Origin: Eledone cirrhosa
Lineage: Eukaryota
Reading direction: 5' to 3'
NCBI GenBank assembly: GCA_964016885.1
Contig: OZ024743.1
Span: 310,558,001 to 310,622,000, forward strand
Length of the DNA: 64,000 nt
The notes under the pieces are model-generated. The model made no database searches. It saw nothing but the letters and a program-made list of their open reading frames with translations, and was not told the origin of the DNA. Each line of letters begins with the position of its first letter. The stretch's first letter is position 1. Below are positions 6,906-45,180 of the stretch, in pieces. Position numbers and translations under genes: made by a program.

Positions 6906-6950
<45 letters not shown>

Positions 6951-7079
6951 AAAGTTATATTTAAATTGTTGGTTAACAACGAGAGTAAATATTTATAACT
7001 GATATAAAAGCACTCAACAAGTATTTGGAGTATATTTATGATATTAAATAAATGGAAACTATATTTATAAAATCATATT

Positions 7080-7145
7080 TATTTCGTTATATATATTTCA
7101 GGGATATCATATTAACAATATGTTATGCCTTCTTCAGACAAAATA
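7080..7145 (-). ncRNA. Type-I hammerhead ribozyme in PLE pLTR
   Basis: Reverse complement of 11157-11222. Confidence 0.85.
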
Positions 7146-8456
7146 CAATATAAACAGTCTTATAAATAAATAGATACGACATACCTTTCAATCACCTTGC
7201 ATTTGGGAAGTTGATTTGGCAGTAAAAAATATTGTGGACAGTTGTAAAAAGAAAGAGAGAAAGAAAGAAAGAAAGAGAAACGAAGAAAAAGAAGAAATGC
7301 ATGTGACTAAATAGAGAGATATAGAAAGATAGATAAAGAGAAGAACTTCATGTAAAGAAACAGAGAGAAATATATATAGAGAGAGGAAAAAAGAAAGAGA
7401 TAGATAGAGATAGATAGAGAACCTAGGAAGTTGAGTATCGGTTGATACATTTATTTATTTATTTATTTATTTATTTAGCTCTAGTATTAATGTAAAGAGA
7501 GATGTATGTAGTTAAGAGAGAAAATAGCCGTTATATAGAGAGAGAAAAGAGAAAATGAAAAAGAGAAAATGAAAAATAAAAAATAACCAGAAATAAACGA
7601 GGCAGAATTTAAAAACGCTGTTTCATCCTGTAGAAAATATTAGTTCGTATAAAACAGGCATTATAATGTAAATATCAGTATTCATGAATGAGACATGTAT
7701 CTATAATGTGTGAAAAGTAATGATCTTATGTCTAGTTTTTAAAAATTCATATGTTTATATCATAATTATAAACAAACTCCCAATTCACACGAAAACATTC
7801 TCATTGTGCTATAAAAATTCAAGTATACATATATGTGTGTATATATACACATATATATAGAGTCTATATTAATTTTAACAATACTATTCTTGTCTTTACT
7901 CTACATGATTGTCGATCAAGCAGAAATAGAGAACAGATTTCAATATATTAATAAAAATAAAAATAAAAATAAAAATAAAAATAAAAATAAAAATATCAGA
8001 GACAAGAAAATAAATAAATAAACAGAAAACTAAAACATTTAATATTAAAAATAAAAAATATTACAAAATATTAAAAAATAATAAAAATAAAACATAGTAT
8101 GCCACGCAAATCGGCCACAGAGATCAGCCTTTCAAAGTTAATTGACAATATATTGCCAAGTTCATCATAGGCATCAGAGTCGAAACAGATAAAACAAAAA
8201 TTGTTTACCAAATCCTGTCTAGCAGAAATCATTCCAAAAGTTTAGGATACCCATTTGGTCTACATATGTTCTTATATTTAATTATAGAAGTTTATCTAGT
8301 GTAAAATTTAATTCGATATATTTGGAGCATCAGCTTTTAGGGTAGTTTAATTATTCATGAAGAATGTTTTAATAAAAAGAATGTTTTAATAAAAAGAAGA
8401 AATCGAAAGATTTATCGGCTAGTTTCATAAATAATTACAAATCAAATCAAACATAA

Positions 8457-10240
8457 CTACATTTTAAATTTAAATTTATATTTAAACGTTGAGTTCAATC
8501 TATGTCTGCAGCAACTGAATAAATTTGTCCGTAGATTAAGGGAATTTTTAGATTTTAGTATAAAGAATATCTCCTCCGCACAGAGGTCACATGTCTCAGA
8601 GGATGAATTAAAAGGAATCCCCCTTGAAACTATATTCCAAGTCGTCGAATATCTAACGTTATCATGCCTAAGTTGCCAGAGTACGCCTGATAGTGCTGTT
8701 GAAGATTTTTTTGATGGATCTGTGAAAGAATTCTTGTGGTTGTTATAGCGAAGTTTAAATTCCGTCGATGTAGAACCAACGTAGTTAAAAGAATTAACGT
8801 CCGTTTTAACATTACAGTTGTATATTATATTTTTAACTAAGCAGTTGTTATTTAACGGACATTTAGATCTATCTCTACAGTTACATTTGTTAACTTGGAT
8901 ATTATTTATGCTATTATCGCTAGGTTTTAAGTTCCTGTTATTTATTCTATTAATATTTTGCGCTAAATTTTTGGTGGATGAGTAGGTTAGTTTTATAGTA
9001 TGTCTATTGAAAATTGAGTGATACCTATGTGTTCTAGGGAAGCGATTATCAAGAGCTTTAAAAAATAGTTTAGCAATGTGGGTTTTAATGTTTAGTGAGA
9101 AAGGGGGGGGGGGGGGGCAAACCATATTATATTCCTAGTTCTATTTCTTTTATGGCTTTTGGAATTATTGTAATGCTTTCTATTATAGTTGTTAAGGTTG
9201 TGGCCGTAATTAAAATAGTTGTTATTTTGTTTAATTTGTTTATCATTATCTATGTACATAATTTTATCACTATATCCTGCTCTAGCTAACGCTTCATTGT
9301 AATAATGGGCTTTTTCGTCGAAAATCTTTTTATTAGATGAGATTCTAGAGATACGTGATTGAACAGAGTTTACTATAGTATTTTTAACAGATCTGGGGTG
9401 GTTAGAGTTAAAGCTGACATAGTTTAAGTTTTCATTCAACTTGTGAAATGGATAGTGAAGACATGTGTTGAGATTTAATGTTATATCTAGGAAGTTGACT
9501 ATTCTATGGTTATTCTCAATTTCTATTTTTAGATTAAAGTGATTAAAAAATTGTGTAATTTGTTTTCTTTTTCTATTTAGTTCAGAGTTATTATTATCAA
9601 TAAGTAAAAGCATGTCATCTCTATATAAACCTCCGGTAGTACCAGGTATTTTCCTATGCAGCGAATTGATTAAAAATAAGCCCACAAGGTCAGTTACCTG
9701 AGCTGAGTCGGATGATCCCATAGTAATGTCAAAATTGTTATCTCTATCTGCTCGGGTCCATAGTTGGTCATTAAATTCTATCAATGTTTTCCTAGCCGAT
9801 AATATAATGTGCATTTCATTGCTAGTTAGGTCTGTATGTTTGAATGCGTAATTTAGTGCCTTATTTAGTAGATTAGGGGTAATGGAAGAATAATAGTTAG
9901 CAATATCAAGTTGAATAAACTTATTATTATTGTTATATTTAATTTGCTTAATCCACTCAACAACCTCACCAGTTCCCTTCCACAAGCTCAGGTTAGGTAA
10001 ACAACCCAAGTTTTTAATTTGCTGTATCACCCTGTCAAGAATGTTTATGCTTAGTTTACCCAGGTCGATTTTGATGGTGCAATCAATCTGACTGGCAAGT
10101 CATTCTCAAAATTTCTCTTATGATCTTTCATATTGATCTTCGGTTTCCTGGGCACGAAAGGTTGTGTTCTGTTCTCAATTTCCAATTCGTGCATTATACA
10201 AGATGCCTCAACATTCATTTTCTCTAGCTCGGCCTTATCT
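8457..10240 (-). pseudogene. PLE reverse transcriptase + C-terminal GIY-YIG endonuclease (frameshift in G15 run 9103-9117)
   Basis: QLDIANYYSSI, DITMGSSDSAQVTDLVG, GLYRDD, NFLDITL; CNCRDRSKCPLNNNC, IIY..YVGST..FKLRYNNH, CDLCAEE, LNLR..CRH. Confidence 0.92.
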
Positions 10241-11156
10241 GCTATTTTTTATTTTTAATATTAAATGTTTTAGTTTTCTGTTTATTTATTTATTTTCTTG
10301 TCTCTGATATTTTTATTTTTATTTTTATTTTTATTTTTATTTTTATTTTTATTTTTATTAATATATTGAAATCTGTTCTCTATTTCTGCTTGATCGACAA
10401 TCATCTAGAGTAAAGACAAGAATAGTATTGTTAAAATTAATATAGACTCTATATATATGTGTATATATACACGCATATATGTATATTTGAATTTTTATAG
10501 CACAATGAGAATGTTTTCGTGTGAATTGGGAGTTTCTTTATAATTATGATATAAACATATGAATTTTTAAAAACTAGACATAAGATCATTACTTTTCACA
10601 CATTATAGATACATGTCTCATTCATGAATACTGATATTTACATTATAATGCCTGTTTTATACGAACTAATATTTTCTACAGGATGAAACACAGCGTTTTT
10701 AAATTCTGCCTCGTTTATGTCTGGTTATTTTTCATTTTCTCTTTTTCATTTTCTTTTTTCTCTCTATATAACGGCTATTTTCTCTCTTAACTACATACAT
10801 CTCTCTTTACATTAATACTAGAGCTAAATAAATAAATAAATAAATAAATAAATGTATCAACCGATACTCAACTTCCTAGGTTCTCTATCTATCTCTATCT
10901 ATCTCTTTCTTTTTTCCTCTCTCTATATATATTTCTCTCTGTTTCTTTACATGAAGTTCTTCTCTTTATCTATCTTTCTATATCTCTCTATTTAGTCACA
11001 TGCATTTCTTCTTTTTCTTCGTTTCTCTTTCTTTTTTTCTTTCTCTCTTTCTTTTTACAACTGTCCACAATATTTTTTACTGCCAAATCAACCTCCCAAA
11101 TGCAAGGTGATTGAAAGGTATGTCGTATCTATTTATTTATAAGACTGTTTATATTG

Positions 11157-11222
11157 TATTTTGTCTGAAGAAGGCATAACATATTGTTAATATGATATCC
11201 CTGAAATATATATAACGAAATA
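11157..11222 (+). ncRNA. Type-I hammerhead ribozyme in inverted pLTR
   Basis: tattttgt-CTGAAGA-agg..catatt gtt aatatg..cct-GAAA-tatat-ATA-acgaaata. Confidence 0.85.
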
Positions 11223-11259
11223 AATATGGTTTTATAAATATAGTTTCCATTTATTTAAT

Positions 11260-11293
<34 letters not shown>

Positions 11294-14293: not shown

Positions 14294-15450
14294 TTAAACT
14301 CCACATGGGTTGTCGTTCATTGCCGTTGCCAACTCCTGGATTCCAATACCAGAATCTCTGGAGATGACATCGGGATAGGAGAGCTTGCACCCCCTATTAT
14401 TAGTGTCTGCTTGTGGTTTCCAGAGCACTAGTGCGGACACAGCCTCATAAGTTGCACGATGGCAGTGGCCAGCAAATCTTACTCTCCTTTTACGTACAAC
14501 GACAGATTCGTGGGCGGCCGGCATATATTTCTTTCAGAGTCAGATGCCACCTTATGTTCTGAAGAAGAAGGCGAGTGTAGGTGCCATCAAGGCGCTGTTG
14601 TTGTTTGGATAAAAGCATCCATGTTTCACTTCCAGATAGCAAGATTGGTTGAATTGTTACTTGAAGAGTCTGATTTTGGTGTGGTTGCAAAGATTTGAGC
14701 GCCAAACTCGATCCATCCTGTTGCAAGCTGAGCATGCTTGGGCTTTTCTGGTGGCAAAATCCTTCCCAGAGTCCATGATCCAGTACCCAAGATACTTAAA
14801 ATCCTTGACTTGCTTGATATCACTGCCATTGATGCTTTGCTATTGTTGCCTGTACTGTTTGATATGTACTCTGTTTTGACCTCCTTGTGATGAAGGCCAG
14901 CCAGGACGGCTGCTTCCTGGAGAGATGTCAAAATTTGTTGCTCATTTTCTTGGCAATCTGCACGAAGCGCAATGTCATCCGCAGAGTCAAGATCAGTGAG
15001 ATGTTTAGATGGGTGCCTAGAGCTCATACGGGGTTTGATGGTTATACCTTTGTTACTGATGTTGTCAATTGAGAGTCTCAGAACTTAGTTTAGTGCAATG
15101 ATAAATAGAAATGAGACAAAGTGTCACCCTGTAAGATTCCTGCTGAAATATTAAAGAACTATGTTGGGCCATCAGGGGTGATGATGGTGGCACTTGTGTT
15201 GAGATACAGAGCTTCAATTGCTTCAACAATTCTCGATGGGATGTCATACAATGGTATCATTTCAAACAGAATGTCTCTCTTTATGCTGTCAAAACCTTTT
15301 CTAAGGTTAACAAAAACTGGAACCATTTGTTTGTTGCAGTTCCTCATCTCGTCGACTACTCTTCTCAAGGCCAAACTCTGTACAAGTGTAAATCTATCGC
15401 GCCTAAAACCGTTTTGGTCGAAGCGAAGGATTGGATCAACAAAACGGAAC
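14294..15450 (-). mobile_element. Degenerate RTE-like LINE RT fragment
   Basis: FVNLRKGFDSI, DLDSADDIAL, ILLSGSETW, LDGTYTRLL and RRVRFAGHCHR across frames. Confidence 0.85.
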
Positions 15451-15614
15451 TATATTTTATAGGAATGTATAGTAACTAATAATTGATTCAATTCATTTGT
15501 AATTCACAATTTTACTTGAGGAATGTTAATAGAAATATATTTCAACTGGCTCACTCATTATTAAAACTATATTTTATGGTCGTCATTAGCAAATACAATT
15601 TTCTAACTTCTCGG

Positions 15615-16333: not shown

Positions 16334-16378
<45 letters not shown>

Positions 16379-16599
16379 AATTAAGTTAAAAATGTACATC
16401 TACATATGCATACTGAAATACTAGTATTCATATGAATACACACACGTATACATATGTAGATGTACCAAGTCTTTCACTGGTTACTTTACTGTGAGTATCC
16501 AGCTATTCTGTATGTAAACACACAGACAAACCGGTTTTTAGAGTCATACTGGTTTTTGAGGAAACACCTTTCCTCTATTCTCCAGAAAGCCAGACAAGG

Positions 16600-16644
16600 A
16601 ATATTGAACTAGTTTCGTTGTTGTTACAACTCATCAGCAATATT
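16600..16644 (-). ncRNA. Type-I hammerhead ribozyme
   Basis: Reverse complement of 17212-17256. Confidence 0.9.
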
Positions 16645-17211
16645 TACCTATCTACCGGCCTTTCTGGAGAATCGTAAAAGCACATATCGTTATATGCTTT
16701 TTCTATGAAAATTAGTAGTGGGCAGACTAATTTGCATAGAGTGTGAGTACGTACCGGTTCAACGGAGACGATAAAAACAAATAACGAAACGAAATTAAAT
16801 TTCGTTTCGTTTGTAACTCACTTTTGTATGACTTAAACAATTAAGTTAAAAATGTACATCTACATATGCATACTGAAATACTAGTATGCATATGAATACA
16901 CACACGTATACATATGTAGATGTACCAAGTCTTTCACTGGTTACTTTACTGTGAGTATCCAGCTATTCTGTATGTAAACACACAGACAAACCGGTTTTTA
17001 GAGTCATACTTGTTTAAGCGTCCGTCATACAAAAGTGAGTTACAAACGAAACGAAATTTAATTTCGTTTCGTTATTTGTTTTTATCGTCTCCGTTGAACC
17101 GGTACGTACTCACACTCTATGCAAATTAGTCTGCCCACTACTAATTTTCATAGAAAAAGCATATAACGATATGTGCTTTTACGATTCTCCAGAAAGGCCG
17201 GTAGATAGGTA

Positions 17212-17256
17212 AATATTGCTGATGAGTTGTAACAACAACGAAACTAGTTCAATATT
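17212..17256 (+). ncRNA. Type-I hammerhead ribozyme
   Basis: aatattg-CTGATGA-GTTGT aaca ACAAC-GAAA-cta-GTT-caatatt, with palindromic stem III AACTAGTT. Confidence 0.9.
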
Positions 17257-17544
17257 CCTTGTCTGGCTTTCTGGAGAATAGAGGAAAGGTGTTTCCTCAA
17301 AAACCAGTATGACTCTAAAAACCGGTTTATCTGTGTGTTTACATACAGAATAGCTGGATACTCACAGTAAAGTAACCAGTGAAAGACTTGGTACATCTAC
17401 ATATGTATACGTGTGTGTATTCATATGCATACTAGTATTTCAGTATGCATATGTAGATGTACATTTTTAACTTAATTGTTTAAGCGTCCGTCATACAAAA
17501 GTGAGTTACAAACGAAACGAAATTTAATTTCGTTTCGTTATTTG

Positions 17545-17576
<32 letters not shown>

Positions 17577-17730
17577 ACGGAGGAAAGTACTCAATACTTA
17601 AGGTAGTAGAGTGGGTAATAGGAACGAGTAGGACCCCCACTGCTGAGCTCAAGCCGTTTCGACGGCTAATTCTGGACTCAGAATTAGCCGTCGAAACGGC
17701 TTGATCTCAGCCGTCGGGGTCCTACTCGTT

Positions 17731-17735
<5 letters not shown>
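17577..17735. repeat. Fold-back mini-element centred on HHR stem II (family of 111-290 and 44978-45180)
   Basis: aggaacgagtaggacccc..gacggctaattctg / cagaattagccgtc..ggggtcctactcgttcct. Confidence 0.85.
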
Positions 17736-18699: not shown

Positions 18700-21600
18700 T
18701 AAAAGATGTCCGTCAATGTAAAAAAGGTCCTTATTTACTTGAAATGGTTTATACAAATGCCAAATTAATATGGATATGGATAACATGATTATCTATAAGT
18801 GGTCAGCTATAATAATAAAACAACAAATTATATGACAAAAAAATGTATTCAGTAATATCCAGGCTCTTAGCCACTGAGTAATAGAATGTCAATATTGCCC
18901 AGAGTTCAACTCGGGGAGGTGGCCTGGTTTGAACTCCAAATGGCGGATCCTTCTACTTCGAAAATAGAATCGTTTTTCAATATTACTCTAGCCCTGGCCG
19001 GCCATAGGCACCAGACTCAGCATATGATGAGGTTTTATTTCGACCGCTCTCAGAAGCGATAAATTTGAAGGCAATTTCTACCAATACATGTTGGTTTTTA
19101 TTGCTCATTATCGACAATAAACGACATTGAACAGAAATGATAACTCTGTCAAAGCTCACAATACTGATCAAGGGATCAATGTCTGAATCATTTACGTCGA
19201 ATATTCATAGCAATGAAGGACATTTCTACCAATGCTTGTTGGTATTCATTGCGCAACATAGCTCATTAGTGGAAATCGAGTGGAGAACCTCATCGACCAA
19301 TTCTTTCTGAGATTGGGTCACCATTGGCATATGTTCATCCACAATACGTTGCTGTTCCAGTGGATCAAACTGGAATAGTTCCCTCCGATCGAGTGACAAC
19401 CGTCTAATCTGCAATCTCATGTTCAACGCTAAGACACGTTGCCGCATTTCTTCATCAGGAATTGGCAAATTGAAATCTGTTAAACATTTGAAATGAACTT
19501 CAAGCAGTTGCTCAATTGAGCAAAACAATAGTTTTCAACAAATGTTCATCATCGACCTGAAGATTATGCCTAAAATCATCAGCCATAATTCCCCAATGGC
19601 GTTCAAATAACCCTCTTGGATCGGCAGGATTGCAGAATCCTAGAATCGTGACAAACAACTGCCTTATTTGAGCTGGCATCTGTGATGTTCCTGCAGCTTC
19701 CATGGCGTTATTTCATTTAGCGTCATCCTGAAGGAGTCCCAGATGCTGACACACATCCTGGTATGTTTCATATTCCGCGCCATTGATTGTTTTCAAATCA
19801 GCGAAGCTCTGTTTACCTCTCGAAAAATCATTATGCAACAGAATTAGGAGATAAAACACATCACCAGATGCTGGATGGACATTACAAATCCGTCCTATAG
19901 TCATGAATCTCAACTTTTGTTTTCTATCATTCCATTTCTTTCCCTTCTTATCCCACGTATAGTGCGAAGGGAAATCGCAGTAGAGTTGCCTTTGGTCCGG
20001 GTTCAAAGCATGTTCCCTATTATGCTTGAACCACTCAGGCACTTCCGTCTTAGGAGGTGGTGCGTTAGCAATTCTTTCGACACCTCTTCTAGTGTCCTGA
20101 AAACAGACCATTTGCCTATCCTCTAAGTTAACCGTCAGTTTCTGAACGCTAAGTTTGCGTTCATTGAGATCAAAATCGAACAATCTCCAGCAAGCTTCCC
20201 TAGATCCAATCGAGCGAACATCCTGGAACCTGTCAACTTCATCTCCTTGGCTCGCTTCCTCATTCCTGATATTGATCATTGCCCGATCATGACCTTTGTA
20301 AACATATTTGAATAGATATTTGCAAGGTTTCACTGAGCTACAAACTTCTACATTAATATGACAACGATATTTCATAATCAAATATGGATTGTACGGTTCT
20401 TTGGCTGTTGTCCTGGCAAAAGTGCATCCTTAATATCAGTCCATTCGGGATTGCATGTAACCATTATAAACAAATCTGGCTTTCCAAACTTTCTAACAAT
20501 AGCCATTGCATCCTGATAGCGAATGTTCATATATCTCGGGCCGCCGATGAACGACGATGGCAAAATGATGCGTCGACCAATTTGCTTGTAATTGGCATCA
20601 TCGGCTGTTATAGCATCCTGTATACTATTATACAATTCAGCTCTGATATGTTGCTGATGTGTAGCTATATAATTTAGCCTTTCATTTTCGATCTTTGCTA
20701 ATGTCAAACAACAGTATTCCTGGAACAATCTGCTGGCTTGAAATAGTGCATTTCTCTGTTGATTCCTCTCATTCAAATGGAACGCGTAAAAGTCGCGAAT
20801 CGAATTATTGTGTCTATTGACACCTCCCTGTTGATGCTGATTTTCATGATCATCTAAATGAACAGACATGTTCCATCCATTTTCACCTTTTGGGAATAAA
20901 AGAACATAATGCAATGGATCGTATGCGCTATTTGACTCATTGATAGTCTTGAGACCACCATCTCTGCGATTGAGGAGGATATCTCTCGATCCAGGCTTAT
21001 CGTCCATCAACACAGCAACTTCACGAAATCCTTCAGGGGCATTATATCGCCATTCGTGTTGATTCCTTGGCACTGCGTCAGTCTTAATCAACAATATTTG
21101 CTGCTGAACATGTTGCAGTTCAATCACCAACATTAAATCCATAACCTAAGGATTACACTGTCTAAGTCATGGTTGCAAATCACGGATCAAATCACTGAAC
21201 TTTTGCCGTTTAAGTTCAGTTACATTTCCCGGCAACTTCATCCACCGATCCTGATATCCTCCTCCGATTCACTATAATCTGGATCGTTAACGTACATTTG
21301 ATCGAATCGAGGCCTCTCTCCTGGGTAACTTCTAAATTACCGATACGATGATACAAACGGCCTTGAATGACTACATTCGGTTGCCATGCTCCACTCTCAA
21401 ACATCTCACTAACTCTCTGCGATGCTAAAGCTAATGAATTGTTAATTTGCCGCGAATAATTGCGCAGTAATCTACCTCCGTCTCCTTGATCACCCCACAT
21501 ACTTAGTATTTTAAACTCCGGTGACTCCTCATCATCCGGCATTCGCAAGGGTTCTAGTTGAACTGCTCCTTTATGACAGCACGTTGTGGTCCACGTCTTT

Positions 21601-22928
21601 TCGTGCCTCCAAAGCAATGCTCCACAATGTGGACATTCTGCTCGTCCACCAATATGAAAATGACACGGTTGCCATGATCCATTTTTAATATCATTCGTTT
21701 GTTTCTAGCCTCTTTACTGGAATGAAGAGCACTTTGGCGACACATTCTCTGAACTTCTGTATTGCGCTGGCGCTGTTCAGCCAGCTCCTCTTCATCCATC
21801 GCAGCACGCCATTGCTGCTGAATTCTGGCCATCTGCTGATGATGCTCAGCCAGTTCGTCTTCCACTATCGCAGCACGCCGTCGCTGCTTGGCTCCAGTGT
21901 TTCGTTGGCGTTGTACAGCCAGCTCCTCTTCATTCATGGCGTCACGTCTTCGCCTCTGAAGTTTGGCGTTCCGATGGCGCTGTTCGGCCCGTTTTTCTTC
22001 ATTGCTGATGCACGCCGTCGCCGCTGTAGTTCACTATTTGATAAGGGTCGAATTGCTTTTATTGTCAGTATTCATTTCGAGCAATTGTCAAAAAATGACA
22101 CAATAATAAATATAAAAGATGTCTGTCAATGTAAAGAAAGGTCCTATTTACTCCCTTCACAACTCTCTGTATGTTAGACTGACAGACAGGCACACAGACA
22201 GATAAACTGCGTGGCGATTGTGGAACGCCACACACATACACGCATGGAAACGCGCACACGCACGCAAACTTACACACGTACACACTCACACATGTTGATA
22301 GTTTTTACTTTCTGTGGAACGCTGCACGCACGCACACACACATAAAGATACACGCACGTACATACACACGCACACATGTTAATAGTTATTGCTTTCCTTC
22401 CCTCTTATTTCCACACACATCACACACACACATGTCTCTACACTGACACATATACATAGTGTATAAAAAATGACACAATAATAAATATAAAAGATGTCCG
22501 TCAATGTAAAGAAAGGTCCCTATTTACCCCCTTCACAAATCTGTGTATGTTAGACTAACAGACAGGCACACAGACAGTTAAACTGCGTGGCGATTGTGGA
22601 ACGCCACACACATACACGCATGGAAACGCGCACATGCACGCAAACTTACACACGCACACGCACATGTTGATAATTTTTCCCCCCTGTGGAACGCTGCACA
22701 CACGCACACACACATAAACATACGCGCTCATACATACACACGCACACATGTTAATAGTTATTGAACACAGCGTTCACACACTCTCCTCTCACTCTCTCTT
22801 TGGCATTATGCATATTAATTTCAGTTTGGCGTCGTTGAGGTGGGCGGAGTCGTTTGAAACCTATGAACCAATGATAATCGAGAATTATGACACACGGAAT
22901 ACTGACGTTCTTGAAATTAATAAATAGG
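18700..22928 (-). mobile_element. Helitron (Rep pseudogene, internally deleted, helicase largely lost)
   Basis: YDPLHYVLLFPKGE, IILPSSFIGGPRYM, Rep motif 1 KPDLFIMVTCNPEW, motif 3 KYLFKYVYKGHD, CPHC..CC zinc finger region, and EEELAEQRQR repeats. ~380-bp 5' duplication (22085/22465). Confidence 0.92.
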
Positions 22929-23189: not shown

Positions 23190-23745
23190 AATGAAAAAAA
23201 AAGAAATTTCATTTCTCACTCTTAGTACGGCTGATACTTAAATATAAGAATGTATACGTACTTACATATATGTATGCATACCCACAGTAGTATATATATA
23301 CATACATACATGCACACATATATATATATATATATGTACGTATGTGTTTACCGAAAATTTATTATAATGTTCGGTTTGTTTCTAAACAAACAGCCCGAAT
23401 TAAGCCGTACAGTGTTCAGCAACTAACGTTGCCCTTTTGTTCAACGCTGACAAAGGAAAGATGAACTAGTTTCTAGCTTATTAGATGTCATCAGCACCGT
23501 ATACCTTCCTGTCAGTCGATTGAACGTTTGAATATATATACTTTCCTTATGCATATTAACGGCTGAGCAGCCTAATTTGCATATCGAGTAAGTTAGTCGG
23601 CCCGGCGTACCGAAAACGCTTATATGGAAAAAAAGGAAATTTCATTTCTCACTGTTAGTACGGCTGATACTTAAATATAATTATGTATACGTACATACAT
23701 ATATGTATACAGACGTACAGTAGTATATATATACATACATACATG

Positions 23746-23790
<45 letters not shown>

Positions 23791-24255
23791 GTATGGGTTT
23801 ACCGAACATTTATTATAATGTTTGGTTTGTTTCTAAACAAACAGCCCGAATTAAGCCGTACAGTGTTCGGCAACCATCGTTGCCATTTTGTTCAACACTG
23901 ACAAAGGAACGATGAACTAGCTTCTAGCTTATTAGCTGTCATCAGCAAAGTATACCTTCCTGTCAATCGATTGAACGTTTGAAAGTATATACTTTCCTTG
24001 TGCATATTAACGGCTGAGCAGTCTAATTTTCATATCGAGTGAGTTAGTCGGCCGGGCGGACCGAAAACGATTAAATGAAAAAAAAGGAAATTTCATTTCT
24101 CACTCTTAGTACGGCTGATACTTAAATATAAGTATGTATACATACATACATATATGTATACAGACGTACAGTAGTATGTATATATATACATACATGCAAA
24201 CATATATATATGTACGTATGGGTTTACCGAACATTTATTATAATGTTCGGTTTCT
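23190..24255 (-). repeat. Retrozyme-like tandem array: ~430-450 bp unit, ~2.4 copies, one HHR per full unit
   Basis: gaaatttcatttctcact at ~23203, ~23636 and ~24087. Distantly similar to the 16.4-kb unit (gcag.ctaatttgcata). Confidence 0.88.
23460..23498 (-). ncRNA. Type-I hammerhead ribozyme (second copy 23911-23949 has GAAG)
   Basis: ggtg-CTGATGA-c a(g/t)ct aata agct a-GAAA-cta-GTT-catc. Confidence 0.75.
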
Positions 24256-31399: not shown

Positions 31400-33982
31400 T
31401 CAGGTTATAAATTGGGTGTTGAGTTCTAGTCTATTATTGATTGGTGGTTGTGTTTTATCTATAATTAGTGCTTCCTTAATTCTAAGATTGCCGAGGTTTC
31501 TTTCCTTAGTTTCTATCCTAACTGTTATGGTTTTGTCGGTGTTTTTGCATTTAACTAGGTGTTTCTTAAATGAGGAAGCGTTAGTATTGAGGTGTTCTTT
31601 TATTCTTATGTGGAGTGGTCTGGTGGTGCTACCTACGTAGAAGTTGTTGCATTTGTCACACTCTAGTCTGTATACGACGTAAGCCTGGTGGCATAGGTCT
31701 GTGTCGTTGATGGGGCAGTTGGCTAGTCTGCAGCAGTTGTCATGTCTGGTGGAGTGTCTTTTGGTTAGCTGTCCGCGTAGAGAAGGACCTGAGTGGGCCA
31801 GTTGGATATCTAGTCCCTCTCCTCTGATGGCTCTGCGGATGGCTGTTGTTGTTTCTTCACTGAAGTGTGGGAGCTTCAGGAGGCAAGTGTTAGTGCCTCG
31901 GGTGTGGTGTCCTCTGTTCTTTCTGGCACGGTTTGTGGTGGATGTCGTGTATCCGTTCAGTTTGAGTACTTTTCAGGAAATGTGTGGTGTGTGTGTCTCG
32001 GTCTCTAGCGTCGGTGCATTTGTTCCGGATACGTGGCAATTCGTTCCTTATGTATCCGAACTTGGCACCAAGTGGGAGGGCCGATCTGAAATGTACGAAC
32101 AGGTCCCTGCTGGCGGCTTTTTTATAGAAGCAGGTGTGGATGTTGCCTTCCTCTGTTACCCTGAGTTGGAAGTCCAGTAGGGATAGGGATCCGCGGTCAT
32201 CGGGGTGTTCCATGCTGAACTTTATACTGGCGTCCATGCTGGAGAATGTTGTGTATATATTATCTGCCTCCTCACGGGATGATGTAAGGATGAGTATGTC
32301 ATCTACATATCGGGTGAAGAAGGCATGGGAATGGCAGGTGTTGAGGGCTCGGCATTCTAGCTGGTTCATGTAGGTGATGGCCAGCAGGCCCGATAGGCTG
32401 GATCCCATGGGTAATCCTGTTGTCTGTCTGTATGTGTGGTGGTGGAAGGTGAAGTACATGTTGTCTACTGTGAAGGACAAAAGCTGGTGTATGTCCGTCG
32501 GGTGGAGGCCGTAGCAGTGGATGTCCTCTGCGACCACGCAGTCCGTCAATAAATTGACAGCTGGATGAGCGGGGACTGTAGTGTAGAGGGAGACAACGTC
32601 GAGGCTAAAAGCGTATTTATTTAGTTTAAGTTGTTCTGGCTGGAGTTGGTGTAGTCTACGTATAACTTCGTCGGAGCTACTGACATGCCCGGGAAAGGTG
32701 GAGAGTAGAGGCTTGAGGACCTGGGAGAGGAGCCCGGAAATTTTGTATAGGGGTCCTTCTATGCTAGAGACGATGGGTCTTATCTGCGTCTTAGTACTAT
32801 TCTTGTGGGTCTTGATGAGGTGGTAGAAAGTACGCAGTCTGCTATTTCTAGTGGTGTAGTTGAGCTTAACTTTATTTGGGAGTTGTCTTCTCCTACAGAT
32901 ATCGAACCAAATGGAGTTGGTTTGTTTTTCGATCTGGGCTGCAGTCATGTCCGGGATCTCTGTGTATAACTCATTGTCGCTTAGGTGTTCAAGGGCTAGG
33001 TTATTGTATGTGGCTTGAGAGATGACGCAAAACTCTTTACCTTTGTCGGATCGTAAGTATATAAGTTCCCTATTCCGTAGGTTCTTCAGGGCGAGTTGTT
33101 GTGTCCTGGAGAGGTGTGGGACTATCTTCTTCTGTTTCCGTAAGATGTTAAATACGGAATGTTTTAGTCTCGAGAGTTTTTCTTCAAGCTCGCGGTTGGC
33201 AGGCGGTGGACAGAGTGGGCGATCTAGTTGGTATATCGGGAATCTGGGTTTGATAGATTCCGTGTTGTTGTTGTCGAGAGTCGATATCCATTTTAGTTGG
33301 TAGGCAGCCCGACAGAAATTCGTTTCTATGTCGAGCCATAATTTGTCGTCCAGTCTCTGTTTCAATATGAACTTGGGACCCAGGCTGAGGAGGTCTAATT
33401 CCTCTCGGGAGAGGGATCCTGTCAAGTCTGTGACGAGGTGTTTTGCGTCAGGTGTGTTGTTAGTCGGGGTGCCGCTAGGTTCGGTGTTGGTACCGTCTTG
33501 TTCGCCTCTGTTGGTGTTTAGAGTTGGAATGTTGTTAAGACAATTGGCCGTCCTGAGTTTGAGAAATGTTTGCGTTAGACGTATTTTCTCGTAGTCTCGG
33601 CGATGGTGGTATGAGCTGTCTATCGTGGCGGAGATGACTCTGGACAGAGGTTCTGGGGTTTCAGCGAGTTGTGGTACAAGGCTGGAAATAGTCCGTATGT
33701 GATGTTGTAGCGTGCGGTGTAGGTGTTGTATGAGTTTTCTTAGGCAGAATTTTTGTATGTAATTAAGTGATCGTTTGTGGCCTGGTGATTTGAAGCATGT
33801 TGGTAGGTGCAACTTTTTGATAGTTTTGGGATGATGTTGTTATTCAGGCATCGTTTTAGGAAGTTTATTTGGCAGCTGGCTTTGGCGCGCTTTTCAGATA
33901 GCTGGAAGTGTTTCTTTACAGTTGTGAACTGGGCCTGGCTCAGGCGTAAGGAAAGGAGGAGGTTATAGTTCACTTGAAGCAT
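31400..33982 (-). pseudogene. PLE RT + GIY-YIG ORF with two frameshifts
   Basis: RSDKGKEF, LIKTHK, IRPIVS, SLDVVSLYT, GLPMGSSLSG, TRYVDD, LLDFQL. Manual translation gives LCHQAYVVYRLECDKCNNFYVGSTTRPLHIRIKEH and PINNRLE then TGA at 31400. ATG at 33982. Confidence 0.92.
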
Positions 33983-36910: not shown

Positions 36911-39565
36911 GGGGGTAGTAACACAACAGTTAGTTCACCATACCAAGTACAATTCTATCAACTTATGTCGATCTTCAGCTCAGTTATACGGAACACGAAA
37001 AACAATCGCATGACGCGCGTGCGCAGAAACGGTCACTTCACCCAAGTGATACAAAACCACGGGCGAAAGGTGTAAGGGAGATAACTGCGAATGTCTGGAA
37101 TAAAATGTTCGAGTTGATTAGATTATTAGAATCTTGTTGTTATTAAATCCGGTGCTTTGTAGTTATGCAAGAGGTGTTTCCAGACATGTGGACAACGTGA
37201 GAAGATTTCATATATTGAATTTAAGCAATCGCTATTGCATAATCACCTTAGAATATTTATCCTTTCTTCAATACACAGTCCACAAACGGATTGTCCCTTG
37301 CGTATGGTTTGGACTTAGTGATAGCTTTCCATTGAATGGAATAGTTTATACCTGAGTCTTTGAGAGACAATACATGGCTCGCGAGCTTCGTGGATAATCG
37401 TTTGTCCGTGTACCTAAAGTTCGACTAATGGTTCAGGAAGCGTTCCTTAAATCGGAGCTCCACCATTTCCACATAGGATTTGCCCTCCTGCGGTTGACTT
37501 GGTCGGTTGGAAGTGACCACAGCTTCATAAACTATATTGGGTGTGTTGCATTGCTTTTGAAGGGGACCAGCTTCAGGCTTTCGACAAGAGCATCCTGGTG
37601 GGCTGCCGTTCTTAGGACTGTTGGTGATGTGGGCCTGCATATTCTTAGCGCAGGAGTACCCTAGTTTTACTCTGTGTCTGTTAAAGATGGTGCGGTATTT
37701 GTGACCTATAGGAAAGTGTCTATCTAAGAGGGCTAAACAATGTTTTCCTACATTAGTTTTAACGTTGAGTGAGAAGGGAGGGGAGAACAGATGGTTTGTC
37801 TATTGTTATGATTTCTTTTCTTATTGCTGTTGGTGTTAGAGGGGGGAGTAAGTAATTGGTTGCGAGAAGCCGCTGTTGTATTAGGTGGCCGGTCTGTCAA
37901 AGATTGTTTTATTAGAGGAGAGGTTAAAGATTCTAGTATTGATATTATTTACGAAGTTTCTAAAAACAGTAGGAGGGTGGCATGAGTCCTTGTGTATGCA
38001 ATTAAGTTTTTCGTTTAGTTTATGGAAGAGTCTAAAGGTATGTGTGCGAAGGTCTAAATTAATGTCTAAGAAATCTACGCTAGAGAGGTTGGTAGCTGCC
38101 GTTATCCTAACTCATTAAAAGTAGAAATTAAATCTTTTTTATTCCGCTCCAGGTCGTGACCACTTTTATGGCTCGATAACGTCAGACCATCGTCGCGGTA
38201 TATTCCCGTGTGGAAGTCTGGGAATCTAAAACGTAATGTATCTAAAATAAATAATCCAACCAAGTCGCATACGTCAGCACTGTCGAACGATCCCATGGAA
38301 ACGTCGAATAGTTCTGAAGTGTTTGACTTCTTTGCCCAGGCTACTCCGTTGTTGAAGAGGAGGGTTGAACGGTAGTGAAAATGGTAGCAAAGTCCAACGC
38401 TTTGTTTAACAGGGTCTCTGAGATCGACGGGTAAAAATCCACAATGTCGAATTGCGTGAACTTCGCTTTTTTTTGGAGTTGAAGGAGTTAAACAACTTAA
38501 TGACTGAGTCGAGTCGCTGTTCTCCCATTGGGACAGGTTGGACTTGGTCCTAATGGTCGTAACTATGTTCCTAAGTATAGCCTTACTGACTAGTCCCATT
38601 TCCGTGCGTATCGGGCTTAGTAGTCTACACGTGGGATTAAAAGCAAAGTCTACCTTGTGATCCTTCCGGGTGAGAAACGTCTCACGATTAGCTAAGCATT
38701 GTAGTATCTTATCTACCTTAAGGGCAGCAGCAAGGTCTTTGGCTTCTGTGTTGATGTCGTGGTAGGCCGTAAGGTTAGCCTTCTTATATTTAGAGATTAT
38801 GGCGTTACGTGCCAAGAGGCTGTAAGTAGTGTTGTCGACTTCGTAAATATTATTGGTTTTGTCAGAAAGAACGAAAGTTTTATTGTAAGAACTTAATTTC
38901 TTAACATTATTTCTAAGTTTAGTTTGGAAGGTGCTAGAGTGTTTGCAAAAGGAAATGTTAGCGACTAAGTCAAGGAGATCCTCTTCGAAAGGAGCGAGTT
39001 CATATACTTTAGGAGGGTAGGCTCTCGATTTCAAGTTGAAGGTGTTACTGGTGCCTGTAATTTTACCGACAAAAGCTAGGGCTTTCCATCTTAAGCGTTT
39101 GACGACGCCTTCCACTTTTCGTAGGAGAAGTTTTAAGTAAACATAGTTGGAGGGAGTGGGTATATTCTTCAGAGAATTATCCAGTTCGTATAAACCCATT
39201 CTGACGTTGGTGAGACAGAAAGTTGTATAAGACACGAGGATATAGAGAGCGCTCACAGGGTAGAAAGCCAAAATCCATGTGATGAGAAGGATCTGCTAAA
39301 AGCCAAACTTCCACCTGATGAAAAGAATCTGCTGACAGCTGCCGGAGACGTGCATAGAGGTAGAACACTGGAAGGTAATATCCGTAGTGGTAGAGCACTC
39401 AATCCATGGGACGAGTTTAGTAAAAGTAGTAACACAACAGTTAGTTCACCATACCGAGAACAATTTTTTCACCTTATGCCGAGCTTTAGCTTGGGTAAAG
39501 TGACCGTTTCTGCACACGCGCTTTCACACGGTTGTTTTTCCTGTTCCGTATAACCATTACCCGTC
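36911..39565 (-). mobile_element. Penelope-like element (Hydra-type motifs), decayed ORF ~37160-39200, with pLTR copies at both ends
   Basis: SLKNIP, LRWKA, SDKTNNIY, DVSMGSFDSADVCDLVG, GIYRDDGL; CSCRKP..PLQKQC..NIVY, FKERFLNH. 36917-37045 recurs, partly inverted, at 39426-39555. Confidence 0.9.
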
Positions 39566-40444: not shown

Positions 40445-40526
40445 ACTTCCAACTAATTAGTTTCTGGAATGGAGTAAATATGTTTTCCGAAGAAGATATT
40501 GAAAAGCATTCCGTCGTCAGGGAAGT
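40445..40526 (-). ncRNA. Type-I hammerhead ribozyme (sister copy 40967-41048 has A9T)
   Basis: Reverse complement of the 41698 motif. Confidence 0.85.
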
Positions 40527-41697
40527 CTATTTTCATCCAAGTTACCAGGCAAAGCCAGGACGCTGGAAACTTATTAAAAAATAATTCAGTGGATAGGAAA
40601 TAGCAAAGCGTGGACTGAATTCCCAGCCATTGAGAAAATCACTGCCTCTACGTCTGTGGCAAATTCAAAAAGAATCAATCACGTGACATCGAGGTCAATC
40701 AGTGGAAAGTGGTTTGCTAATAAGACGGCGGCCTACCTACTACCATAGCAGCAGTCATGGCCAATATTGCTCGACAAATAATTTGGAGATAATAATAAAG
40801 AATTTATATCTAGTAACATATATATACATACAGATGCATATCAATGCTAGCAGATATATAGGTTTTGTCTTAGTAACATTGTGGTTCAATGCATGGGGTT
40901 GCAGAACAATAATATGAGAAACGTAAAATAAGAAAATTATGAAATTAACTTACTTACTAATATATCACTTCCAACTAATTAGTTTCTGGAATGGAGTAAA
41001 TATATTTTCCGAAGAAGATATTGAAAAGCATTCCGACGTCAGGGAAGTCTATTTTCATCCAAGTTACCAGACAAAGCGAGGACGCTGGAAACTTATTAAA
41101 AAATAATTCAGTGGATAGGAAATAGCAAAGCGTGGACTGAATTCCTAGCCATTGAGAAAATCACTGCCTCTACGTCTGTGGCAAATTCAAAAAGAATCAA
41201 TCACGTTACTAAGACAAAATGTTACTAAGACAAAATGTTACTAAGACAAAATGTTACTAAGACAAAACCTATATATCTGCTAGCATTGATATGAATCTGT
41301 ATGTATATATATATGTTACTAAGACAAAATGTTACTAAGACAAAATGTTACTAAGACAAAACCTATATATCTGCTAGCATTGATATGCATCTGTATGTAT
41401 ATATATGTTACTAGATATAAATTCTTTATTATTATCTCCAAATTATTTGTCGAGCAATATTGGCCATGACTGCTGCTATGGTAGTAGGTAGGCCACCGTC
41501 TTATTAGCAAACAACTTTCCACTGATTGACCTCGATGTCACGTGATTGATTCTTTTTGAATTTGCCACAGACGTAGAGGGAGTGATTTTCTCAATGCCTA
41601 GGAATTCAGTCCACGCTTTGCTATTTCCTATCCACTGAATTATTTTTTAATAAGTTTCCAGCGTCCTGGCTTTGCCTGGTAACTTGGATGAAAATAG

Positions 41698-41779
41698 ACT
41701 TCCCTGACGACGGAATGCTTTTCAATATCTTCTTCGGAAAATATATTTACTCCATTCCAGAAACTAATTAGTTGGAAGT
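41698..41779 (+). ncRNA. Type-I hammerhead ribozyme
   Basis: acttcc-CTGACGA-c GGAATG...CATTCC a-GAAA-ctaatta-GTT-ggaagt, with palindromic stem III AACTAATTAGTT. Confidence 0.88.
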
Positions 41780-42218
41780 AATATATTAGTAAGTAAGTTA
41801 ATTTTATAATTTTCTTATTTTACGTTTCTCATATTATTGTTCTGCAACCCAATGCATTGAACCACAATGTTACTAAGACAAAACCTATATATCTGCTAGC
41901 ATTGATATGCATCTGTATCTATATATATGTTACTAGATATAAATTCTTTATTATTATCTCCAAATTATTTGTCGAGCAATATTGGCCATGTCTGCTGCTA
42001 TGGTAGTAGGTAGGCCGCCGTCTTATTAGCAAACCACTTTCCACTGATTGACCTCGATGTCACGTGATTGATTCTTTTTGAATTTGCCACAGATGTAGAG
42101 GCAGTGATTTTCTCAATGGTAGGAATTCAGTCCACGCTTTGCTATTTCCTATCCACTGAATTATTTTTTAATAAGTTTCCAGCGTCCTCGCTTTGCCTGG
42201 TAACTTGGATGAAAATAG

Positions 42219-42300
42219 ACTTCCCTGACGACGGAATGCTTTTCAATATCTTCTTCGGAAAATATATTTACTCCATTCCAGAAACTAATTAGTTGGAAGT
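42219..42300 (+). ncRNA. Type-I hammerhead ribozyme
   Basis: Same as 41698-41779. Confidence 0.88.
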
Positions 42301-44760: not shown

Positions 44761-44977
44761 TATATATATATATAGCCTAACAAGGTTGTTTCTTTTATTT
44801 TATAAATAAAATAAAAATGGCGTAAACATTACAATACAATAGGAGGGAACATGGTAATAGTAACACTGATAATGTTGCAGATGACCCTCACCAAGTATAA
44901 CAATATTTGTTTCGACACACTATTTCATATCAAAAACCTTGCAAAACAAATATACATATATATATATATACATATAT

Positions 44978-45180
44978 AGGAAAAAGTATGACCCCGACGG
45001 CAGAGCTCAAACCGTTTCGACGGCTATTTCTGGACTCTATTTCAGTCCAGAAATAGCCGTCGTAACGGCTTGAGCTCTGCCGTCGGAGTCATACTTTTTC
45101 CTATTTCCCACTCTACTACCCCAAGTATTTAGTTCTCTAGTGCATTATGGTCCATCTGGTTCCTTACCACAATTCCTTTA
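44978..45180. repeat. Fold-back mini-element centred on HHR stem II
   Basis: ggaaaaagtatgac..ctatttctggact / agtccagaaatag..gtcatactttttcc. Confidence 0.85.

Follow-up and report, generated by a model that had tools for sequence, protein, structure and literature searches.

Non-LTR retrozymes of animals are non-coding tandem repeats of low GC content in which each unit carries one type I hammerhead ribozyme. The accessible parts of two accounts (Cervera and de la Pena 2020, PMC7229834; Li 2026, bioRxiv 10.64898/2026.07.22.740005) describe thousands of dispersed copies, ranging from monomers to large multimers, with structured RNA and Penelope-like elements (PLEs) as proposed helpers. A tiny palindromic helix III is the hammerhead form that works in dimers (Cervera 2014, PMC4209133), and it has been proposed in print that retrozymes spread as circular RNAs which PLE enzymes copy (PMC4209133, PMC7229834). 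The EN+ PLEs themselves (Neptune, Hydra, Naiad; PMC8557442, PMC11167929) insert into (TA)n targets and carry hammerheads with a small palindromic helix III. Their insertion signature is a partial tandem, an inverted 5'-truncated copy and a tail on one end, and the origin of these tandem and inverted insertions and of the tails has been posed as an open question (Craig 2021, PMC8557442). According to the accessible text of a more recent study, the PLE cuts and extends both target strands, and the tail is the stretch between two internal RT start sites on the RNA (Frangieh 2024, PMC11167929). Non-autonomous, multicopy head-to-tail insertions are known from MRC1 and other Chlamys PLEs of Chlamydomonas, which share 3' sequence with an autonomous family and mostly lack hammerheads (Craig 2021, PMC8557442).

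Here we describe a repeat of the octopus Eledone cirrhosa that has the traits of both animal non-LTR retrozymes and EN+ PLEs listed above, and that resembles the Chlamys elements in its non-autonomous, multicopy head-to-tail insertions. Its unit of 466 nt exceeds the 170-400 nt given in PMC7229834 and lies within the 51-972 nt of Li 2026. For retrozymes, the accessible text of these two sources makes no mention of arms set head to head, of fixed start sites at two positions or of templates bearing edits (the word 'inverted' occurs 0 times in that of PMC7229834), and whereas circles have been demonstrated for the published animal retrozymes, the one proposed here is predicted from genomic sequence. 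Unlike the EN+ PLEs, the unit has no ORF, its tail is 69-74 nt long (30-40 in the PLEs) and both arms often contain several units; unlike for the Chlamys elements, no sequence-related helper was found among the PLE families compared. The accessible text of an octopus repeat annotation (PMC13282606) contains neither 'ribozyme' nor 'retrozyme'. A literature search, with most subscription papers, Repbase and supplements outside its range, returned no account of inverted retrozyme insertions with two start sites or of unit-wide editing marks.

Structure of the inserted repeat

The analysed window is a stretch of 64,000 nt, and the insertion with its flanks occupies positions 16339-17576. The features are as follows.

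16339..16375, no strand: left (TA)n target microsatellite
16374..17010, minus strand: left arm of 637 nt (1.37 units), which begins on the outside with the 'short' start site (unit 464)
16600..16644, minus strand: left-arm hammerhead motif of type I, with its core at 16613-16637
17007..17015, no strand: head-to-head (5'-5') arm junction at 17010, 1 nt of microhomology
17010..17551, plus strand: right arm of 542 nt (1.16 units), which closes on the outside with the 'long' start site (unit 67)
17019..17484, plus strand: one full 466-nt monomer in ribozyme sense, highly structured, no ORF
17113..17154, plus strand: stem-loop at about unit 98-136; A>G clusters of related insertions fall at unit 101-122
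17212..17256, plus strand: type I hammerhead of the right arm, predicted cut after 17249
17471..17482, plus strand: 'short' start site, unit 453-464, resembling the sequence at the long start site
17483..17551, plus strand: the 'tail', 69 nt from one fixed start site to the other, U-rich at its end and containing a hairpin of 13 bp at 17511-17539
17549..17576, no strand: right (TA)n target microsatellite

The left arm runs from unit position 464 to 6 and then from 466 to about 289, where it is 5'-truncated; a 6-nt deletion at its tandem junction (16832/16833) gives this arm a period of 460. The right arm consists of unit 458-466, one full unit and unit 1-67. An earlier sequence-only reading had proposed a monomer of about 465 nt, written as 1.4 copies followed by 1.15 inverted copies. 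The repeat unit is confirmed with an exact length of 466 nt, the copy numbers come to 1.37 and 1.16, and the two arms share an inverted match of 459 nt with 2 mismatches. Both arms cross the unit boundary and (TA)n borders both outer ends, in agreement with that reading and its recent, (TA)n-targeted insertion. The element is also non-coding, the longest stop-to-stop frame inside it having 69 aa, and its GC content is 35% from base counts, retrozymes being characterized by less than 50%.

The single hammerhead motif per unit (CUGAUGA/GAAA/GUU) had been recognized correctly and is of type I. Stem I has 7 bp (17212-17218 paired with 17250-17256) and is followed by CUGAUGA at 17219-17225, a stem II of 5 bp, GAAA at 17240-17243, and a helix III of 2 bp with the palindromic ACUAGU, with the GUU triplet ending at 17249. 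An Rfam scan of the unit gave no match at gathering score; the best match by E-value was Hammerhead_HH9 (38.6 bits, E 3.4e-8), below its 52-bit cut-off. Among about 130 haplotypes the catalytic core is nearly invariant, N17 being U in 93, C in 38 and nothing else, and stem II shows one compensatory pair across subfamilies. The folding of the unit gave z = -11.2 against 100 shuffles. No ligation footprint was seen at the predicted cut, where 3 indels lie near the site among 444 units; the corresponding unit position, 231, ranks about 35th for variation and bears no mark of ligation.

Directly next to the insertion, at window positions 17577-17735, a small hairpin element between TA runs consists of 57-nt inverted arms and a 41-nt one-sided extension, a one-tail layout in miniature, and related copies lie at 153-258 and 44950-45136. 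Further hammerhead-like motifs occur in the window at 2851, 36617, 40484-42261, 44584 and 45955. Rep/helicase fragments and decayed RT-like sequence at 20378-22030 and 14626-15462 are, we assume from their motifs, Helitron-like and RTE-like.

Distribution in the genome and insertion ends

The 466-nt repeat is a family of at least 2,300 insertions. The 3.0-Gb assembly of the source animal itself was searched: a DNA search returned 572 candidates (40 were scored, mostly 98-100% identical), the exact hammerhead pattern matched 5,273 times with 0 matches of a control pattern, and the tail end followed by (AT)n matched 2,334 times. The copies are dispersed and range from monomers to multimers (under 1 to about 147 units); those classed below fall into about seven subfamilies that are 2-13% apart. 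An LTR-unique-LTR layout was seen in no locus read. A sister hammerhead repeat, homologous to the unit along its length, is present in the window at 23235-24240 on the minus strand, with a period of about 434-451 nt (about 451 here); this family is older, has 2,246 genome pattern matches (control 9) and likewise sits in (TA)n with a short and a long end of its own. An intact RTE-type LINE frame of 1,040 aa was found inside one retrozyme arm (L061, 4288-7410).

For the analysis of the ends, 131 insertions were classed, to which the DNA search and the first hammerhead matches contributed 27 loci each and the first tail matches 75; two loci hold two insertions each, and duplicates of one place were dropped. 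The outer ends are fixed family-wide: the 'long' one is at unit 67 and the 'short' one at unit 458-464, and on a circularized unit 69-74 nt lie between them. A long end is combined with a short one in 95 of the 131 insertions and two alike occur in none, while 34 have one fixed and one other end and 2 run off the stretch. Since 75 of the 131 loci were chosen by the tail pattern, long ends are over-represented, yet such picking cannot account for the absence of long-long pairs. A short-side sample of 20 loci without an exact tail match contained 10 insertions with long and short ends, 7 with a short and another end, 1 composite and 2 unclassed. Exceptions are L263, with short ends on both sides, and likewise the composite L310, which consists of two insertions. 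The different registers of the two halves, previously taken as circular permutation and expected to vary among genomic copies, are instead two fixed sites.

Two-strand insertions are strictly minus-then-plus in 90 of 94 cases. Their inner ends are spread over the unit and independent between the arms, lying within 20 nt of each other in 13 of 104 (p=0.23), and the longer arm can be on either side (45 vs 40 of 85). Microhomology of 1-10 nt is present at 52 of the 104 inner junctions, and 5' truncations are not enriched at the predicted cut (7 of 208 vs 4 expected). Since the outer ends are fixed and the inner ends unrelated, two separately primed cDNAs explain the insertions better than one switching cDNA, and we infer that the two were primed from two nicked strands. 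Both flanks are TA-rich in 85 of 97 insertions, and an anchored target duplication of 8-39 nt was detected in 13 of 97, compared with 0-4 in 20 shuffles. One insertion (L256, 2230-2812) lies outside (TA)n and shows a clear target duplication with microhomology at both ends. The fixed ends, one of each kind, together with the inversion are the 'tail plus inversion' signature of PLEs. In L1 twin priming, two cDNAs are started on a single RNA from two nicks in the target; the result is an inversion with junction microhomology, and the second primer lands at variable internal places of the linear RNA. Here, in contrast, both sites are fixed and each cDNA may exceed the length of the template.

Changes shared by all units of an insertion

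The same haplotype is present in both arms of 56 of 62 testable insertions. Editing specific to one arm was not seen, the remaining 6 of the 62 carrying 1-2 arm-specific changes. We defined a change as array-wide if every unit of an insertion carries it and none of the five closest relatives does, which could be scored in 120 insertions with enough cover. On the ribozyme strand, the 72 array-wide changes include 27 A>G and 11 T>C (p=0.009). A looser rule gave 49 vs 15 among 117 array-wide changes, and the use of seven relatives as reference gave 25 vs 11 among 68. Among 427 single-unit changes the numbers are 47 A>G and 44 T>C, which differs from the array-wide set (Fisher p=1.5e-7). The 5' neighbour at the 27 array-wide A>G sites is U in 15, A in 8, C in 4 and G in 0, and ADAR disfavours a 5' G neighbour; 21 of the 27 sites are paired in the predicted fold. 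A single insertion, L110, supplies 7 of the 27, and by subtraction 20 vs 11 remain without it. Two other sources of the bias were considered and rejected: RT error or transcription-linked mutation would appear in the single-unit changes, and selection for wobble pairs does not fit C>T changes (8) as numerous as G>A changes (8).

Three clustered haplotypes were checked genome-wide, 'private' otherwise holding relative to the sample only. The L109 haplotype, with three A>G beyond its nearest relative, has 4 genome matches, all in one insertion (1 + 3 per arm). The L110 haplotype is 8-11 A>G away from the two closest to it, and its 3 matches lie in the same arm of a single insertion. Both A>G clusters are thus present in every unit and only in their own insertion. 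The third, an edited 468-nt haplotype, is not private and has 69 genome matches at 7 places, forming a young sub-lineage; two of its arrays, of 19.8 and 25.6 units and with both arms long, contain 0 substitutions in 9,156 and 11,850 unit-bases. If a single RNA of monomer length served as template for successive rounds, all units of the array would be expected to share an edit pattern unique to that insertion, as seen in L109 and L110. The array-wide A>G changes of some insertions suggest that these were likely copied over and over from one edited, probably circular, RNA; a haplotype could also look private if its source copy is absent from the assembly.

Variation within arrays was observed as well. 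In one arm of L077 (1338-6466), 6 of the 11 units carry an A>G at unit 342, which recurs with a period of 3, and the other arm is without it. Within the otherwise uniform arrays of L109 and L268, the A run at unit 363 differs between units, as independent polymerase passes would give.

Growth of older arrays

Array growth by DNA recombination in older arrays is real, since mutations are common to subsets of their units, one array of about 69 kb and about 147 units (G000:C5:87617750-87686377; L301-L304) has higher-order repeats, and array length and within-array divergence show no correlation (rho -0.09, n=90). The 69-kb array, which still terminates with the tail and (AT)n, is a satellite that grew out of a single insertion. 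An in-register subfamily switch inside an array, with its breakpoint in unit 232-300, was seen only once (L262, 2265-3054). For the alternating units of L073, a dimer circle from a dead hammerhead was considered and failed at both array ends, which points to later duplication.

Two sets of contigs close a 466-nt loop, namely one contig of 496 nt (466+30) in run X4 and two contigs of 343 and 183 nt in run X6; they were given no weight, because a tandem array would close the loop too. Nor was weight given to the lack of cover in run X4 for an abundant neighbouring hairpin element. Among the sequencing runs that contain the repeat, none is recorded as RNA.

Coding PLEs as candidate helpers

The genome contains a Neptune-type PLE family with zinc-finger and GIY-YIG motifs and 11,892 pattern matches, and in all 18 of its inverted pairs that were read one end is tailed and the other untailed. 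Two copies (L186 and L187, at G000:C1:9960400 and 14222300) have a 4.8-4.9-kb tandem unit with two frames and a 40-nt tail. Neither a pattern search nor Rfam revealed a canonical hammerhead in the Neptune-type unit, so these tandems are without a known ribozyme. A second PLE lies in the window itself at 6949-11264, arranged head-to-head in (TA)n with one short end and one end with a tail of about 90 nt. Its RT frame (9092-10099) has a YRDD motif and gave no Pfam hit, and a hammerhead-like motif is present in both arms. This PLE, which we take from its motifs to be Hydra-like, is young and very abundant, with 40,164 candidates and frames of up to 802 aa; its full frame is present in L154. Further PLE frames of other families were noted in L094 (1052-3391, 780 aa) and in the window at 31893-33839 (649 aa) and 38105-39295 (397 aa).

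The retrozyme unit was not found joined to an ORF as a pseudo-LTR among the loci read, as the sequence-only reading had left possible, and an RT plus GIY-YIG ORF between pseudo-LTRs is absent from them. Comparison of the unit with four PLE families yielded no common sequence; a DNA search with the Neptune 3' end, in a program that skips common words, had no matches; and a relaxed hammerhead pattern used in the helper search recovered only the sister family. Where the tail is followed by other letters, 30 of 75 such places are point variants or ends, without an ORF, and the 20 short-end loci added no new unit-PLE chimera. Four junctions between the unit and a PLE are known. In L096 a unit with its long end lies head to head with a Neptune-type short end, which obeys the one-of-each rule; in L118 the unit is joined to a tailed Neptune end; in L127 it is joined to a second PLE family via a LINE fragment; and in L021 it adjoins an old decayed Neptune, which makes target deletion likely. 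All four could be explained by target deletion between (TA)n neighbours, and these few junctions point to different PLE families. The odds that the Neptune-type family is the putative helper are about even.

Discussion

The element is not an autonomous PLE. Judged from its insertions, it works like a PLE at integration, and its sequence has the characters of a non-LTR retrozyme. We therefore regard it, with a probability of about 0.7, as a non-coding hammerhead non-LTR retrozyme that is moved in trans by a PLE RT-endonuclease, which would nick both (TA)n strands and use each nick for repeated copying of a single monomer RNA, probably circular. Tandem copies would first be transcribed. Judging by the motif and by published retrozymes, neighbouring hammerheads may then pair through helix III, which is palindromic, and release monomers of 466 nt, to be ligated to circles, and the A>G signature suggests that ADAR edits some of the stems. 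The observed target duplications are consistent with staggered nicking of both strands, presumably by the PLE protein. At the fixed ends, one nick would prime at unit 67 and the other at unit 458-464. Each cDNA would proceed for 0.05 to about 17 rounds to a variable stop, and the two would be joined head to head, giving the structure observed. Later, as the shared mutations show, some arrays grow or turn over by DNA recombination.

The most serious rival is PLE-type twin priming on long linear read-through transcripts of arrays, with unequal crossing-over making the arrays long and uniform and no circle needed. DNA-level turnover is indeed observed, the edited 468-nt haplotype occurs in 7 young insertions of which one is possibly the source of the others, and published work adds that hammerhead cleavage is unnecessary in vitro (Frangieh 2024, PMC11167929) and that local DNA amplification has been proposed, with cleavage in 1 of 9 dimers (Li 2026, bioRxiv 10.64898/2026.07.22.740005), as stated in the accessible text of both. 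However, the genome-unique A>G clusters of L109 and L110 are present in every unit, whereas editing of a multimer unit by unit gives unlike patterns, so a linear transcript must assume a missing source copy twice. The hammerhead core is, moreover, conserved. We consider this explanation unlikely.

A linear hammerhead-cut monomer, on which the enzyme jumps from the 5' end to the 3' end in each round, would account for clonal arrays and edits equally well, and the interval of the L262 switch begins at the predicted cut. Nevertheless, units follow each other seamlessly at the cut (3 indels among 444), which favours a circle over end-to-end jumping without proving it, 5' truncations are not enriched there, and only a single in-register switch was seen; such jumping is quite improbable. 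Repeated copying of one monomer-length RNA, as the sequence-only reading had proposed, agrees with the haplotypes and edits, but its single strand switch finds no support. One rolling-circle cDNA starting in random register, with one fold-back giving the inverted part, would fit this locus taken alone as well as the 13 of 104 insertions whose inner ends are close. It is hard to maintain against outer ends that are both fixed and one of each kind, a uniform inner-end distance (p=0.23) and arms of which either can be the longer, and we give it very little credence. That the unit is only the pseudo-LTR of truncated coding PLEs, or the inversion an assembly error, is scarcely credible: 5'-truncated PLEs of this genome look alike from outside and none of the examined contigs of the sequencing runs spans the locus, but in the loci read a unit always meets another unit in the 5' direction, up to 30 and more times, and never an ORF, the 30 of 75 places with other letters after the tail proved to be point variants or ends, and the 104 inversion junctions all differ from each other.

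The retrozyme moved in trans by a PLE enzyme can also be read more boldly, with the chances evenly balanced for and against. Each insertion would then be the fossil of one ADAR-edited circular RNA, on which two Penelope-type RT subunits, from two fixed starts and in opposite directions, ran up to about 17 rounds each at one staggered cut; RNA editing would drive the evolution of the family, and the hammerhead-less Neptune may be the helper. If this joint reading is true, the edits are single-molecule barcodes showing rolling-circle retrotransposition in an animal genome, and the tandem, inversion and tail of PLEs are all explained as one event.

The family links the hypothesis of retrozyme circles with the question of PLE tails and inversions through countable genomic marks. 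For in vitro work it supplies a minimal substrate of 466 nt, start sites mapped at two positions, and candidate helpers. The family also points to a reverse transcriptase that can make 8-kb products from a template of less than 500 nt, and to RNA editing that is written back into the animal germ line.
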